A stretch of DNA of 64,000 nucleotides from Verrucomicrobiota bacterium (GCA_003152315.1 PLZV01000022.1:65671-129670), one strand, 5' to 3'; positions 937 through 50,437 are shown, counted from the stretch's first letter. Numbers and translations: made by a program. The notes: generated from the sequence alone by a model not told the origin.

Positions 937-2868
937 TCAGAAACCTGACTTTTTCAGTGGCCCCTCAACGTCTGAGAAGAGGTATGTGGAGGTTCCTGGT
1001 TGTGGCAATTCCTCCAGCGAGACGCGGAACTGGCGCACCGTTACATCGTGTTGGTGACACAATTCCTTGAGTTGCTCAAGTTGCTGGGGCGCGAGCTTGG
1101 TGGTGGCAATGATCAATTCTTCAATACCACCGTCACGGAGGACCTCGGGGAGAACCATAAACGACCCAAGAATCGGGTATCCATGCAAAATCTTGCGGTT
1201 CTTTCCGTGATACTCGTCGATGAAACCAACCGGGGCGAGTGAATGATGTTGGTTGGCAAGAAGTTCGCAAATCAACAGGCTGGCGCTGGGACCCGTCCCG
1301 TAAATGAGCACCCGCTTCTTGTGAGCGGGATTGGATTGCGCGTAATAATGGATCAGGCGCGCGGAGAATCGCGAACCCAGCAGGAAAGAACTCACAACGT
1401 AAAAATCAATTACCAGTGTCGTGGCGCCGATGTTTCCCACCTGCATATAGGTCAACACCACAGCCGCTGCGGCACTTCCCAGTACCATCGAGCGGCAGCC
1501 GCGCAGCATTTCTGGAACACCGGCCTGCCGCCAGCGGATACGGTATAAGCCCGTCAGGTGGAAAACGACAATCTTGGTCAGCAGCATCGCCGGCAATGTC
1601 GCAATGAATGTGGCCTTCACCGGGCCGGTGAACACACCGTCGTAGCGCAGCCAGTAGGCGACATAGTAGGCCAGCGACACCATCACGAGATCGATGGGGA
1701 TCTGGAACGACTCATATCCCAGCACCGGGAAACGGGAGAGTGGAACTAGCGAACCGTTGCGGAGGAACTGCAACTCTTCGTAACGCAGTTTGCGGATACC
1801 AATCACGACGGCAATGCCAATTGCGGCAAGAACGACGCCCGTGTCGATGTTGCGATACGACGCAATGACGAGGGCGGACACACTCATCGCCGCACAAATC
1901 GCGTAGAGGAATATGACCGCGTTGCGATGGTAGATTCCCAGGCGCATCAGGCGATGGTGAATGTGATCGCGGTCAGCCTCAAACATCGATTTGCCGCGCA
2001 AAAAAAACACCCGGTAGGTTCCTTGGCCTGTCGTTTCCCAGACGTGCATCGCGCGTAGGAAACGGCGAATCATCGCCAGCAGGGCATCCATGATCGGCAG
2101 GCCAAACGCCATCATCGGGATCAGGATCGACACGGCGACTGTGCTCTTCTGCGAGGTTGTGATGCTCAGGACGGCGAGCGTGAAGCCCAGAAAGAGACTG
2201 CCGGAATCACCAAGGAAAATCGACGCGGGGTGGAAGTTGTAAGGCAAGAACCCAAGGAGGCAGCCCGCCAACGCGGAGCACACGAGCGCCAATTCAACAT
2301 TCTGACCGAGTAGCGCCACGCCCATCAACGTTAACGACGAGATTAAAGCCACGCCATTGGCCAAGCCGTCCAAGCCATCAATGAGGTTGAAGGCGTTCGT
2401 TAGTCCCACGATCCAAAGGAGAGTAACCGGAATGCCCCAGAGACCCAGATGGATGGAAACACCCCACGGTAGATTCAGGCGATCAATGACGTATCCGAAA
2501 TACATCGCGCAGCAGGCGGCGAGTGCCTGGGTCAGGAACTTCACCCGCGCGCCCAGTGGTCGCAGGTCGTCGAACACGCCCAGGCCAACGATAATGCTGG
2601 CGGCTGCGAGATAGCCTCTCCACCAATGTTTCCCGACCGAGACAAACGGATTCGTGACCAGTGCGAAGGGTGAAAACGCGAGGAAAACCATGGATGTGAA
2701 CGCCACAAAGATGGCCACGCCGCCAAGCCGGGGGATGGGACGGTCATGGACCTTCCGTTCATTTGGAATATCCATGGCGTTGACACGGATCGCCAGCCAT
2801 CGCACTAGCGGCGTCAGCGCGAACGAAACAGCGAAACCACCCAAAAACAATAGTAAATACTTGCCCAT
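937..2868 (-). CDS. Polyprenyl-phosphate N-acetylhexosamine-1-phosphate transferase (WecA/MraY GT4 family) fused to a C-terminal Rossmann-like (CoA-binding/CapD-N-like) domain
   Basis: Multi-TM N-terminal ~400 aa with MraY/WecA motifs (NAFNLIDGLDGLA, DxxD, FLGDSGS); C-terminal ~200 aa KRVLIYGTGPSA...GFIDEY resembles N-terminal nucleotide-binding domain of WbpM/PglF/WcaJ-type proteins. Confidence 0.8.
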   Translation of the reverse strand: MGKYLLLFLGGFAVSFALTPLVRWLAIRVNAMDIPNERKVHDRPIPRLGGVAIFVAFTSMVFLAFSPFALVTNPFVSVGKHWWRGYLAAASIIVGLGVFDDLRPLGARVKFLTQALAACCAMYFGYVIDRLNLPWGVSIHLGLWGIPVTLLWIVGLTNAFNLIDGLDGLANGVALISSLTLMGVALLGQNVELALVCSALAGCLLGFLPYNFHPASIFLGDSGSLFLGFTLAVLSITTSQKSTVAVSILIPMMAFGLPIMDALLAMIRRFLRAMHVWETTGQGTYRVFFLRGKSMFEADRDHIHHRLMRLGIYHRNAVIFLYAICAAMSVSALVIASYRNIDTGVVLAAIGIAVVIGIRKLRYEELQFLRNGSLVPLSRFPVLGYESFQIPIDLVMVSLAYYVAYWLRYDGVFTGPVKATFIATLPAMLLTKIVVFHLTGLYRIRWRQAGVPEMLRGCRSMVLGSAAAAVVLTYMQVGNIGATTLVIDFYVVSSFLLGSRFSARLIHYYAQSNPAHKKRVLIYGTGPSASLLICELLANQHHSLAPVGFIDEYHGKNRKILHGYPILGSFMVLPEVLRDGGIEELIIATTKLAPQQLEQLKELCHQHDVTVRQFRVSLEELPQPGTSTYLFSDVEGPLKKSGF

Positions 2869-2978
2869 ACCCCTCTCTATGTCAAACTTGACGACCCCCT
2901 GAGCCTACAATAAACTGGCCTGGAAGGCAATTAATCTTTCACGAAAAATGTGGCGTTTCTCATCGAAAGTAGCATCTG

Positions 2979-3761
2979 TCAGTCGACCCTGTCACCCTTA
3001 TCCAGTTTGATGATGAGAATCTGCATGAGGGTAGTGAAACGTGTCCCGAGGGCGAGGTCCCAAGCTCTCGGCGACCATCTCAGCCAACTCGGAAAATAGG
3101 TGTCCCATTGCACGCAAGGGTAGTGAAAAAACGTCGCGCTCTGGAACCCGAGTCCGCGGATCGCGGACAACACGGATCGAGAAGTATTGCACCGGTAGTA
3201 GGCAGGGTAATCGTTCACGCGTATGGCGCCGGACTCATCACGTCCGATGCGCCGGCGGGCCATGCCTTTGAGTCCAAGCCGTTCGATGGAACGTGACAGA
3301 ACAGGAAACGGGTGATGGCCGTTGGGGGTCAAGGCCCAGAAGACACCGTTCTCTTTCAACACCCCGCAAACCTTCGAGAAAAACGCCCTTGGGTCGACGA
3401 TGTGTTCCAGGACATTGTACGCGTAGGCCAGATCGTAATTGCTTTCGGGGACAGCGCTTGTCTCAAATGGTGAATTCCATCGCTGACTTAGTAAAGGATG
3501 CATCGCAATCGCTGGGTCTGGGTCGATTCCGTCAATCGTGCCATATTGCCCGGCCAACTCCTGCAGCGCGGTGGGCAGGTTCCGCCCGCAACCAATGTCG
3601 AGAACCCGACCTTTCAATCCCGGTGACCCTAACAACAATTGCACGAAGTAGTCTTGAAACCCGCTACGGTCGGCATCCAGAATCGGCCAACTCACCGGGA
3701 TATCGGCACGCACTTGGCGGACGGCTATCGTGCCGTTCACGGGCGGTTCTCTTCGTACCAT
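2979..3761 (-). CDS. Class I SAM-dependent methyltransferase
   Basis: Motif [10 protein letters not shown], motif post-[10 protein letters not shown]; overlaps fcl stop by 25 nt so true start may be slightly downstream. Confidence 0.7.
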
Positions 3762-48883: not shown

Positions 48884-50035
48884 TCAGAAGTGCAAGAGCG
48901 CATCGACGCTAGCGAGGTCCTGCTCGAAGGAGATCGAAGTTGCGGTCGATGCGTTGTGCTGATAGCGATAGGATGCGCCAAACTCCAACCACTTCGTCGC
49001 GAAATACTTGGCGCCAACCCGGCCCTCCCAAATATTATCTATGCGGCTTACTCCTGAGTATTCATCGTGCTCGTAGGCGCCACCGGCATAGACTAGGAAC
49101 TTCTCCCGGTAAATCTTCTGATTGATCTGAAGATCCGCGCGCGTCGTGGTGACGGAAGTTGAAGCGTTGGTGATCGAGGGACTGATCTGTCGCGCGATCA
49201 CAAGATCCGCGAAGGTGTGTTTCGTAAAATCTCCATGTAACGAGACCGTGCTAACCACGGTGTCAATGCTGGGGCTGGAGCCGGAGAAATCACGATGTTC
49301 ATAGCCGACCCCGATATTGCCCGTGATTTTGCTGGTGACCTTCCCGCGCAGGCCGAGATTTACGGTTTCAAATTGCGCATTCTCGCCCTGCGAGACATCG
49401 GCCAACCCATAATCGAATTCCCCGAATACGTCCGTCTTGGGCGACACGTGGTAGTAGATGGCGACACCGGGTTCGAAGAGTTCATTATCAATCTGCCCCG
49501 GGGTCGGAAAATGATGGAATTCCTGGTGATACAGTGCGCCAAGCGAGAAATACTGGTTCACGCTGTACTCCGCGCTGGCGCTGGTCAGATTCTGCTGTTG
49601 TTCAACGCGCGCACCTGCCTCAAAGTCTTCCGAGGTTTCGTCTTTGAATGTGTGGTCGATCTTTAGTTTGACACGGCTGAACTGAAAAAGACCCTTAAGC
49701 ACCACGTCGTGATTGATGGCATTGAGGGTTGTCAGGCGGTAGAACTCTTCGATCCCCATTGTGTAATCGAGCGACAAGTAATTGTGGTCAAGGTTGCCGT
49801 ATTCCAACTGCAGTCCCGGGCTGACCGTGAAGTAAAAGTCGGCGAGCTGGTTTGCAGAGGAGATCAGCACGTTGTCGTCATAGCTCGACTGGAGGTCGAG
49901 GTGTGGATGAAATTTGATGGGCCAATCATCCATGAGGGCTGCGCGGCTACTACGGCCGGACCACAGCAGGGCGGCCAGCACGAGGACGGTCCAAACTGTT
50001 GCGAGCATTGAGAACCGGTATCGGATGTTATTCAT
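48884..50035 (-). CDS. Outer-membrane beta-barrel protein, EPS-locus associated
   Basis: Signal peptide MNNIRYRFSMLATVWTVLVLAALL, alternating amphipathic beta-strands, C-terminal aromatic (LLHF). Confidence 0.6.
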   Translation of the reverse strand: MNNIRYRFSMLATVWTVLVLAALLWSGRSSRAALMDDWPIKFHPHLDLQSSYDDNVLISSANQLADFYFTVSPGLQLEYGNLDHNYLSLDYTMGIEEFYRLTTLNAINHDVVLKGLFQFSRVKLKIDHTFKDETSEDFEAGARVEQQQNLTSASAEYSVNQYFSLGALYHQEFHHFPTPGQIDNELFEPGVAIYYHVSPKTDVFGEFDYGLADVSQGENAQFETVNLGLRGKVTSKITGNIGVGYEHRDFSGSSPSIDTVVSTVSLHGDFTKHTFADLVIARQISPSITNASTSVTTTRADLQINQKIYREKFLVYAGGAYEHDEYSGVSRIDNIWEGRVGAKYFATKWLEFGASYRYQHNASTATSISFEQDLASVDALLHF

Positions 50036-50437
50036 GGGTGAACCTTTCGCTGTTTCGTTCAAACATGCGGCGGAGTGTAGGGTCAACTACAGGTGCCGAC
50101 AAGTGTGAAATACGTATGCTGGCGTGCCGAGGCCCGCGCAAATCGCCACTATTCCCAGTGCATTCATTGTGGGATACGAAATCCTGCGCCTAATGGTTCA
50201 GCAGGGCCAATGCCGACGTGAGAAGGAGTATTGCCTGCCGGGAAGATGTCCTTCGGCGCGTGAAATACTCAGGAATGAAACCAATGATGATGCGTCGCAG
50301 GTACGAGGTTGTGCTGTACATAATTGTCATGGTGACATTTCTGTTCGGCAGGTGTCTACCGCTCACCAACCAGATGCCGGTGATCCAAACCGGAGCGCGG
50401 GCATCTGCGATGCGGGCGCCAGATAGTGCATTCGCTT

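Follow-up and report, generated by a model that had tools for sequence, protein, structure and literature searches.

A candidate RfaH-like antitermination cassette in a large surface-polysaccharide locus of a Verrucomicrobiota bacterium

How might RNA polymerase reach the distal genes of a surface-polysaccharide locus that runs for tens of kilobases on a single strand, and where would such a transcription unit begin? The question is raised by a 64,000-nucleotide stretch of DNA from a Verrucomicrobiota bacterium, an uncultivated member of the Verrucomicrobiia (GCA_003152315.1 PLZV01000022.1:65671-129670; hereafter the window, with positions counted from its first letter), in which 45 consecutive minus-strand genes extend from position 50035 to position 937. 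Behind the export genes wza and wzc at the 5' end of this array lies a gene for a specialised NusG paralog resembling RfaH, preceded by a 22-nt element that resembles ops, the E. coli operon-leader signal. We assign a probability of about 60% to the reading that this is a hypervariable surface-glycan locus in which an export head is followed by a very long biosynthetic operon, predicted to be licensed by processive antitermination. The RfaH-like gene and the ops-like element probably allow RNA polymerase to read the distal 44 kb; a very long operon would require just such a cassette.

The array was defined from a list of open reading frames (ORFs), from Pfam and NCBIfam scans, and from the gene calls of public contigs that encode proteins identical to those of the window. 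The start of its first gene, which encodes an outer-membrane beta-barrel protein, is placed better at 50035 than at 50086. Fifteen of the 44 junctions are overlaps, nine of them of the 4-nt ATGA/GTGA type, and the remainder are gaps of 0-35 nt (20 junctions), 36-120 nt (seven) or more than 120 nt (two). Overlaps and gaps of at most 35 nt together account for 35 of the 44 junctions, the median is 9.5 nt, and approximately 97% of the span from 50035 to 937 is coding. The two largest gaps separate the beta-barrel gene from wza (465 nt) and wzc from the NusG paralog gene (151 nt). On the 3' side of the paralog gene are 41 biosynthetic genes with no gap larger than 119 nt, and from the paralog gene onward 33 of 41 junctions measure at most 35 nt. 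The locus is confirmed as one contiguous, tightly packed surface-polysaccharide locus, in agreement with the original prediction of a one-strand array of about 46 genes and 49 kb with small gaps and overlapping starts.

The run of co-oriented genes does not start at 50086, as had been proposed. Same-strand genes continue upstream to 55666, adding six genes and one possible small ORF. This block (50438-55666, minus strand) encodes a PNP_UDP_1 phosphorylase of the purine-nucleoside-phosphorylase (PNP) family, a pilin-like protein with a prepilin-type N-methyl domain (51536-51919, minus strand), a proline-rich protein of unknown function, FloA, NfeD and NfeD1b, and the block is syntenic in most close relatives. 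At the other end, the run stops at 937 because a convergent gene for a 784-residue protein begins there. Since the run extends into unrelated housekeeping genes, co-orientation alone is not evidence for an operon; the evidence here is packing together with shared function. The continuation over six more unrelated genes to 55666 does fit a view in which the one-strand array reflects a genome-wide strand bias and the packing reflects gene density, neither having regulatory meaning. We consider that view highly improbable, given the 15 overlaps with nine 4-nt start/stop junctions and the short median gap, a function that is coherent over all 45 genes, a module order that is kept in relatives, and the presence of a dedicated NusG paralog.

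The NusG paralog gene (44840..45412, minus strand) encodes a protein of 190 residues with a Pfam NusG match. Its best NCBIfam score is against RfaH (TIGR01955; 84.5 bits, cut-off 144.5), followed by UpxY (NF033644; 65.7 bits, cut-off 100), housekeeping NusG (41.1 bits, cut-off 135.7) and LoaP (35.6 bits); with a second RfaH model, NF006534, it reaches 54.6 bits (cut-off 124). Sequence searches of the PDB returned NusG and RfaH, both equally weak matches. An AlphaFold2 (AF2) model of the protein, which is one static prediction built from 16 sequences, has an NGN domain and beta strands at residues 141-188. On these comparisons, we class the protein as an RfaH-like specialised NusG paralog and not as a member of the RfaH or UpxY families as curated.

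The ops-like element, GCACCGGAATGGCGGCAGCATG (45444..45465, minus strand, thus on the sense strand of the locus), lies 32 nt upstream of the ATG of the paralog gene and 98 nt downstream of the wzc stop codon. Its last 12 nt form a core, GGCGGCAGCATG (45444-45455), that matches E. coli ops, GGCGGYAGNNTG, at 11 of 12 positions. The sole mismatch is at the loop base T6, here C, and both the GCG..AGC arms and a loop of 2 nt are kept. For RfaH itself, the signal is the 12-nt ops, GGCGGTAGnnTG, read on the non-template strand of an operon leader; the element of the window is a candidate for such a leader site. Published renderings are GGCGGTAG for ops (PMC2871177) and GCGGTAGC for the hairpin of the non-template strand (PMC11685472). 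The ops core pattern occurs twice in the window against 0.42 occurrences expected, which proves nothing alone. The second match, GGCGGCAGCGTG (55346-55357, minus strand), is inside the NfeD1b coding sequence and is without the GCACCG half of the element; it is also present in a relative (L007, positions 190-201; L-numbers are labels of genome and metagenome loci) and is probably conserved because it is coding sequence.

Conservation was assessed starting from the protein and, separately, from the element. When an alignment of the NusG paralog was used to scan 185,579 species genomes, 79 Verrucomicrobiota loci were obtained. The element stands beside the paralog gene in 44 of these (counted non-redundantly), always on the sense strand. 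The 44 element-bearing loci span Verrucomicrobiia and Opitutia, with paralog identities down to about 41%, and give the consensus GCACCGrrATGGCGGYAGCkTG, in which about 20 positions approach 2 bits and the flanks are unconserved. In most loci the element lies 11-560 nt upstream of the paralog gene; in three it is found 2.3-3.3 kb downstream of the paralog start. In the second approach, at least 120 stretches of metagenome contigs were collected by an exact scan for the element that took no account of the paralog, and the element is conserved in at least 80 metagenome loci. Among the matches listed, 72 loci have at least 400 nt of sequence downstream of the element. In 40 of these 72, again among the matches listed, a NusG paralog ORF lies just downstream on the same strand, and in approximately 16 more such an ORF ends 60-350 nt upstream on the same strand, bringing the total to about 56 of 72. 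The remaining loci are short contigs or possibly chance matches. Other genes found after the element in the metagenome loci encode a Bac_transf initiating enzyme, a MatE/Wzx-like protein and a FemAB-like protein. In three loci (L150, L162, L172), the element follows a more divergent NusG-like ORF and is located upstream of a gene of the phage-tail-sheath family, possibly part of an extracellular contractile injection system; the position suggests that the cassette is not limited to glycan operons.

No meaningful match to Rfam was obtained either at gathering thresholds over the whole window or in a permissive scan of 44600-45700, and the leader between wzc and the paralog gene shows no unusual folding stability (z = +0.73); an unstructured leader with no Rfam family fits a DNA site. 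With z-scores of +0.73 for the leader and -1.37 for the terminator-like hairpin described below, we claim neither a riboswitch-like leader nor a strong terminator. The 40 nt upstream of the element tend to be complementary to its first 10 nt (mean z -0.71 over 146 distinct instances, which are not independent) and show no such complementarity to the ops core (z -0.11). By analogy with Bacteroides opsX, this complementarity is suggestive of a pause hairpin whose end lies some 12 nt short of the predicted pause. Between the element and the paralog gene, 24 nt before the ATG, is the motif CTGTACAAA (45429..45437, minus strand), with the palindrome TGTACA; it occurs once in the window and is conserved only in a subgroup of close Verrucomicrobiia. 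It is followed by a conserved TTTGAG, and both are kept in close Verrucomicrobiia relatives, even in those without the 22-nt element.

Could the element instead be a promoter? The sigma-54 consensus is TGGCACG-N4-TTGCW, and the element might drive the NusG paralog gene as a (-24/-12) promoter of the sigma-54 type or as the target of a DNA-binding regulator. In about half of the instances, a G before GCAC gives GGCAC-N6-TGGC, and hence the spacing GG-N10-GC; a transcript starting some 12 nt downstream would have a plausible 5' untranslated region, and another -24/-12-like block is conserved upstream of wza. The conservation pattern of the element is the reason that we rank this alternative lower, and we hold it to be unlikely. 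The first G of the nearly invariant GG of such promoters carries about 0.2 bit here and is a T in the window, and the strongest conservation, GGCGGCAGC.TG, would span positions -13 to -1, which are normally free to vary. The match to ops at 11 of 12 positions, the linkage to NusG paralog genes on either side, and the finding of no enhancer-binding protein gene in the scans of the locus count likewise against this alternative.

Where transcription begins and ends was approached through consensus scans. In three 20-kb stretches, sigma-70-like promoter matches numbered 8, 5 and 10 (6.6, 8.5 and 6.9 expected) and terminator-like matches 26, 19 and 22 (20.3, 19.3 and 20.0 expected), all at chance level. 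The scans, with an E. coli-type consensus for promoters, thus gave no excess of internal promoters or terminators of the kind that would divide the array, and the signals of interest are at its 5' end. The first is a conserved promoter-like region (48567..48690, minus strand; consensus scan and alignment) in the 465-nt spacer between the beta-barrel gene and wza. It contains a -24/-12-like block, TGGCACGCGGCGCGCT, at 48670-48685 (TGGCACG-N6-GCT) and two overlapping sigma-70-like sites at 48567-48605 (TTGACG-16-CATAAT and TTGAAA-16-TACAAT; score 10/12). Both the -24/-12-like block and the sigma-70-like sites are conserved in three relatives (L007, L009, L010), in which the rest of the spacer has diverged; the -24/-12 pattern alone is at chance level in the window (two found, 1.5 expected). 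Farther upstream, near 48730-48760, stands one more conserved block, TAACC..CCTGAAC..CTTAC. An invertible promoter was rejected, since no inverted repeats were found on either side of the promoter region. Because of the conserved promoter-like blocks in this spacer, the beta-barrel gene is probably a unit of its own, and wza-wzc probably have their own promoter region.

The second signal is a hairpin of 7-12 bp followed by TATTTTC (44772..44793, minus strand) in the 119-nt gap after the NusG paralog gene. It is the sole terminator-like match in an intergenic gap of the locus and is a possible attenuator; hairpins also follow the paralog gene in relatives, but with poor T-tracts. Of the proposed single super-operon starting at 50086, then, the contiguous tight packing stands, while the 5' end is punctuated and the beta-barrel gene is unlikely to be the start of the unit.

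In the mechanism that we propose, transcription would start upstream of wza, or at an unrecognised promoter just upstream of the element. In a relative whose paralog gene directly follows the PNP gene (L008), a promoter no more than about 90 nt from the element would be needed, unless transcription reads through from PNP. RNA polymerase would pause at the ops-like element, where the NusG paralog would bind the exposed non-template strand. By staying on the polymerase, the paralog would confer resistance to pausing and termination, including at the weak hairpin after its own gene, and the distal 44 kb would therefore be transcribed as one unit. Expression would be self-reinforcing, a positive feedback, because the factor is encoded by the first gene behind its own recruitment site. 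The glycan would be initiated on undecaprenyl phosphate by a WecA-like enzyme and assembled in the cytoplasm by about 19 transferases from a GDP-linked 6-deoxyhexose, a CDP-linked (probably C-methylated) 6-deoxyhexose and a CDP-alditol. It may be methylated, carbamoylated, amidated, acylated and deacetylated, then exported over the inner membrane by Wzm/Wzt and carried onward by Wzc, the short Wza and the beta-barrel protein.

A number of observations weigh against this reading. The paralog scores below the curated RfaH and UpxY cut-offs, and its AF2 model, of only moderate confidence (pLDDT, the predicted local distance difference test, of 70.6), shows a beta KOW domain in place of the autoinhibited all-alpha hairpin of RfaH, which refolds to a beta-barrel. 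The T-to-C substitution falls on a hairpin loop base that is important to E. coli RfaH, and therefore recognition must differ. Ten close relatives (L011-L013, L016-L022) have the paralog and no copy of the element within 10 kb. The hairpin at 44772-44793 is weak (-18.8 kcal/mol, z = -1.37). The promoter consensus was of the E. coli type and is perhaps unsuited to Verrucomicrobiota, so that internal promoters may exist; for example, a weak promoter-like sequence, TTGCCT-17-TAGGCT, is present in the 110-nt gap before the WecA-like gene. Finally, a kinase-type Wzc together with an ABC (ATP-binding cassette) exporter is atypical, and the locus encodes a Wzy/WaaL-like protein that a purely ABC-dependent route leaves unexplained.

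Comparison with relatives, the closest named of which are metagenome-assembled genomes (MAGs) of Verrucomicrobiia, indicates how such a locus evolves. The isolate names of several related MAGs point to peatland, bog or fen (SPRUCE, bog_, fen_). Over the 79 genome loci, the NusG paralog is a fixed anchor downstream of the PNP/FloA/NfeD block, and the genes on either side vary. Upstream of the paralog, some relatives have the order barrel-wza-wzc and others have 1.3-7.6 kb matching no protein of the window. Downstream, the paralog may be followed by wzm/wzt, by gmd/fcl or by rfbF. A block of about 20 kb is conserved in at least two other genomes (L093, L095); it comprises a CDP-sugar module, a set of GT-A paralogs, a GNT-I-like protein, a hexapeptide protein, a DUF5672 protein, Wzm, Wzt, a second GNT-I-like protein, two proteins of glycosyltransferase (GT) family GT2 and two of family GT4. 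In one relative, whose paralog is 93% identical (L007/L095; contig CAWEWF010000002.1 / contig_13007), there are two separate Wzm/Wzt pairs, one right after the paralog and one within the 20-kb block, in a co-directional array of at least 27 kb. This is a mosaic, fast-evolving locus, as is typical of O-antigen and capsule loci. The expectation of one very complex heteropolysaccharide is not supported in that form, as a single product cannot be told apart from two glycans made in parallel, and the modules reshuffle between related genomes. No tRNA genes were found in the window, and hence no sign of an integration site.

The export genes bear on the same question. The beta-barrel protein (383 residues; 48884..50035, minus strand) belongs to the BBP2_2 family (Pfam PF10082, 73.7 bits), with a weak NCBIfam match to TIGR03016, a PEP-CTERM-associated outer-membrane protein. 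The next gene (47693..48418, minus strand) encodes a short Wza-type outer-membrane polysaccharide export (OPX) protein of 241 residues with the Pfam domains Poly_export and SLBB, in which SLBB reaches the C-terminus without an outer-membrane helix region; its best NCBIfam matches are a PEP-CTERM export protein, EpsE and EpsY, all under cut-off. Wzc (707 residues; 45564..47687, minus strand) is a polysaccharide co-polymerase whose C-terminal domain is a tyrosine autokinase (matches to the Pfam domains Wzz, GNVR and P-loop; NCBIfam TIGR01007 at 174.6 bits, over the cut-off of 108). Short OPX proteins are defined as having at most 280 residues, and composite OPX/beta-barrel translocons are widespread, some being assigned to ABC-dependent pathways (PMC9601211). 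At 241 residues, with a barrel gene as upstream neighbour, the Wza of the window falls in the composite class, and the beta-barrel protein is probably its partner. An EPS (exopolysaccharide) locus linked to an XrtA/PEP-CTERM exosortase was considered and rejected: there is no exosortase among the scanned genes, and the PEP-CTERM-type models for the barrel protein, Wza, Wzc and AsnB all score below cut-off (TIGR03027, 109.5 versus 180; TIGR03108, 377 versus 817).

At the inner membrane, Wzm (ABC2_membrane, 61.9 bits) and Wzt (Pfam ABC_tran with the carbohydrate-binding domain Wzt_C) provide the permease and the ATPase for a pathway dependent on an ABC transporter, and the locus has the corresponding WecA-type initiation. 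For a Wzx/Wzy-dependent pathway, the locus has a co-polymerase of class PCP-2a and an OPX protein, lacks Wzx, and has a Wzy-like match below cut-off. No Wzx-type Pfam match was found among the 45 proteins, nor any Wzx-like polytopic protein in a hydrophobicity scan, which detected four multi-spanning membrane proteins in the locus: the WecA-like protein, Wzm, Wzc and the Wzy/WaaL-like protein. The order wza-wzc-NusG paralog-wzm-wzt repeats in five relatives (L007, L009, L010, L014, L035). Because Wzx is absent, the Wzm/Wzt pair is complete, the short Wza and the barrel protein fit each other, and this gene order recurs, it is more likely that Wzm/Wzt and Wzc/short Wza/beta-barrel are the inner-membrane and the periplasmic and outer-membrane halves of one route than the two export systems that had been counted in the original prediction. 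A second glycan, for instance an O-antigen-like chain ligated by the Wzy/WaaL-like protein, is possible.

That possibility can be extended to the whole array, which may comprise two or more head-to-tail glycan pathways with unrecognised promoters of their own, and thus neither a single polycistron nor a single product. One pathway would make an ABC-dependent O-antigen-like polymer (Wzm/Wzt, the CDP-sugar module, the GT-A paralogs and a WaaL-like ligase), and the other a Wzy-dependent exopolysaccharide (Wza, Wzc, the beta-barrel protein and a Wzy-like polymerase), for which Wzx would be encoded outside the locus. The locus bears hallmarks of both types, modules reshuffle independently, with one relative holding two Wzm/Wzt pairs in its locus, the 20-kb block moves as a unit, and gaps of 50-119 nt could house promoters. 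We nevertheless regard a division into several pathways as the less probable account, if a tenable one, since Wzx is missing from the locus, a single initiating enzyme is encoded at its very end, no intergenic terminator-like site lies downstream of 44772, 33 of the 41 junctions after the paralog gene are 35 nt or shorter, and the candidate antitermination cassette precedes the whole array.

The biosynthetic genes are given here as they would be transcribed. Directly behind the paralog gene (39565..44720, minus strand; Pfam) are genes for a TagF-like glycerol/ribitol-phosphotransferase, an IspD-like cytidylyltransferase (NCBIfam ispD, 141.8 bits, under the cut-off of 181.3), a GT2 protein, a polysaccharide deacetylase and a GT4 protein, a block that is common to L007 at 69-85% identity. 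The CDP-sugar module (32339..39497, minus strand; Pfam, NCBIfam) encodes, in order, RfbF (G1P_cyt_trans, 371 bits, passing the cut-off of 300), an NAD-dependent epimerase/dehydratase, a C-methyltransferase, an RfbF paralog, a PIG-L deacetylase, an RmlC-like 3,5-epimerase (rmlC, 172 bits, cut-off 156), a DUF4910/M28-like protein with HTH_47, and a short-chain dehydrogenase/reductase; it is kept in three relatives (L093, L095, L015). Three nucleotide-sugar pathways had been proposed for the locus. The locus encodes Gmd with an Fcl-like protein, RfbF and an IspD-like cytidylyltransferase; NCBIfam gives no canonical CDP-glucose 4,6-dehydratase assignment for the gene after rfbF.

Three tandem genes follow (29641..32342, minus strand), whose products of 297, 306 and 297 residues are 48-51% identical to each other and have no Pfam match at E < 0.001. 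An AF2 model (pLDDT 89.1) has PBCV-1 A64R, WbbM, UGGT, LgtC and glycogenin among its Foldseek neighbours; WbbM belongs to an ABC-transporter-dependent O-antigen pathway. From this model, the three proteins are predicted to be retaining GT-A glycosyltransferases of an uncharacterised family, present in three copies in the window, two in L093 and one in L095. Members of the family are labelled "hypothetical protein" in the sources, occur in Verrucomicrobiota and Nitrospirae, and in cyanobacteria are fused to TPR repeats. The ABC-exporter module (23956..29621, minus strand; Pfam) encodes a GNT-I-like protein, a hexapeptide acyltransferase, a DUF5672 protein, Wzm, Wzt and a second GNT-I-like protein. 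The two GNT-I-like paralogs (28641-29621 and 23956-24882) thus flank hexapeptide-DUF5672-Wzm-Wzt, as they do in L093 and L095; neither has a Pfam assignment, and both give only sub-threshold matches of the GNT-I (GT13) type. Sequence searches of the PDB with these two families without Pfam matches, the GT-A paralogs and the GNT-I-like proteins, returned nothing.

The next block (12464..23878, minus strand; Pfam) is composed mainly of transferases: two GT2, two GT4, an FkbM methyltransferase, a GT4, a Glyco_trans_1_2 protein, the Wzy/WaaL-like protein and two further GT4. The Wzy/WaaL-like protein (14804-16156, minus strand) has 10 predicted transmembrane segments in a hydrophobic-segment scan, and all its Wzy-like matches are below cut-off. 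Downstream (2979..12447, minus strand; Pfam) are a methyltransferase, an AsnB-like amidotransferase (asn_synth_AEB, 448 bits, cut-off 267), a NodU/CmcH-type carbamoyltransferase, a GT2, a GT4, Gmd, an Fcl-like protein (GDPFucSynFcl, 294 bits, under the cut-off of 500) and a second methyltransferase. The last gene (937..2868, minus strand) encodes a polyprenyl-phosphate N-acetylhexosamine-1-phosphate transferase of the WecA/MraY family with C-terminal transmembrane segments and a CoA_binding_3 domain (Pfam Glycos_transf_4, CoA_binding_3). Its residues 392-612 align to positions 2-219 of the NCBIfam model EPS_sugtrans; this module is the usual N-terminus of WcaJ/WbaP-type enzymes, here without the Bac_transf catalytic domain. 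The fusion was rejected as a novelty, as most of the top 150 cluster representatives, in a search of 1.8 billion representatives, align over the full length. In L023, L024 and L027, a homologue of the WecA-like fusion is encoded directly upstream of the NusG paralog.

The inventory agrees well with the one that had been made from the sequence alone. Against about 17 glycosyltransferases proposed, we count about 19 transferases by Pfam, structure model and sub-threshold matches (12 Pfam-supported GTs, the TagF-like and WecA-like proteins, three GT-A paralogs and two GNT-I-like proteins), and against at least seven modification enzymes we count at least nine. The initiation enzyme expected in the locus is the WecA-like protein (Glycos_transf_4, 151 bits), and all the transferases stand in polysaccharide-type contexts. 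Beyond the array and the housekeeping block, three minus-strand ORFs at 59070-62286, assessed by eye on their translations, appear to encode a LuxR/NarL-type response regulator (59070-59942), a PAS/GAF sensor histidine kinase (59837-61546) and a CBS-domain protein (61885-62286); plus-strand ORFs overlapping this region gave no Pfam match on scanning.

How does this locus compare with known systems? There are precedents for long polysaccharide loci on one strand, for export by a composite OPX/barrel or by Wzm/Wzt, and for NusG paralogs at capsule operons, and the locus itself is a large but ordinary surface-polysaccharide gene cluster. In its export head, it shares with the EpsY/EpsX composite translocon of Myxococcus (PMC9601211, PMC9603273) a short Wza with Poly_export and SLBB, a neighbouring barrel gene and a Wzc-type co-polymerase. 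It differs in that the barrel gene is split from wza by a 465-nt spacer with promoter-like blocks, and in that the inner-membrane partner is apparently an ABC exporter instead of Wzx/Wzy. Like ABC-dependent O-antigen or capsule assembly, it has Wzm, Wzt with Wzt_C, initiation of the WecA family and several methyltransferases that could cap the chain, and its GT-A paralogs have as structural neighbour WbbM, a bifunctional glycosyltransferase according to the PDB entry. Unlike in those systems, its exporter is apparently paired with an OPX protein and a kinase-type Wzc and not with KpsE/KpsD or simple WaaL ligation, and no terminator protein of the WbdD type was identified among the proteins of the locus. 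A more general warning follows from the export genes: the "two export systems" of such loci may be halves of one envelope-spanning route.

The cassette has two points of reference. In the E. coli K30 capsule cluster, wza-wzc are followed by an attenuator hairpin and biosynthetic genes, which are read through with RfaH, and the layout of the locus resembles this arrangement. The RfaH/ops system of Proteobacteria acts by processive antitermination on long operons for LPS, capsule and pili, through the ops/JUMPStart element. As in that system, the paralog, which has RfaH as its closest model, goes with long polysaccharide operons, and the element is a putative sense-strand leader element with the core GGCGG-C-AGC-nTG, versus GGCGG-T-AGC-nTG in ops, with the same hairpin arms and 2-nt loop. 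The differences are that the factor gene stands directly behind the element, whereas the RfaH gene is unlinked to its targets; that the element has an additional invariant 5' half, GCACCGnnAT; that the paralog, at 84.5 against a 144.5-bit cut-off, has a KOW domain that is not predicted as a helical hairpin; that C replaces T in the loop; and that the host phylum is Verrucomicrobiota. RfaH is reported to be approximately 95% proteobacterial (PMC7593976). Verrucomicrobiota are not mentioned in the main texts of PMC7593976 and PMC7819879, and within the literature that we searched we found no account of an ops-like element or an RfaH-like system in this phylum.

As in the UpxY/opsX system of Bacteroides (PMC11685472), the gene for the factor comes first after its own site in the leader of a variable capsule-type operon, the start codon follows the site by tens of nucleotides (+41/42 in Bacteroides class 1, about +33 here), and a possible upstream pause hairpin ends beside the part that forms the DNA hairpin. 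In contrast to UpxY/opsX, the paralog reaches 65.7 bits against the UpxY cut-off of 100, the second gene is a TagF-like transferase (Glyphos_transf) and not an UpxZ-like gene, no inverted repeats surround the promoter, wza and wzc lie upstream of the factor gene, and the element is nearly invariant phylum-wide instead of locus-specific. By these analogies, the candidate cassette combines a DNA signal of the RfaH type with a self-encoded layout of the UpxY type. It would serve as a comparison point between RfaH, a single factor acting in trans on a fixed ops, and UpxY, with many cis-encoded factors and locus-specific sites.

For this bacterium, the cassette offers a testable answer to how a 44-kb array of 42 genes, the factor and 41 biosynthetic genes, could be expressed in a phylum in which transcription has hardly been studied. 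Cultured strains provide a place to mutate the element or the factor; candidates are Horticoccus sp. 23ND18S-11 (L053) and Verrucomicrobiae bacterium DG1235 (L079), each with the element and the paralog, and Pelagicoccus mobilis (L074). In genomes and MAGs of Verrucomicrobiota, the 22-nt element with its paralog would also mark where long operons, for glycans and for other functions, begin. We see an even chance that the Verrucomicrobiota carry a portable, phylum-wide "long-operon licence", consisting of a nearly invariant 22-nt element, with a 3' half that is essentially the proteobacterial ops, and an RfaH-like paralog encoded in cis, that heads hypervariable glycan loci and sometimes contractile-injection-system genes. 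If true, this would be an ops/RfaH-type system outside the Proteobacteria, either inherited from an ancient common ancestor or the outcome of strong convergence on one pause-plus-hairpin signal.

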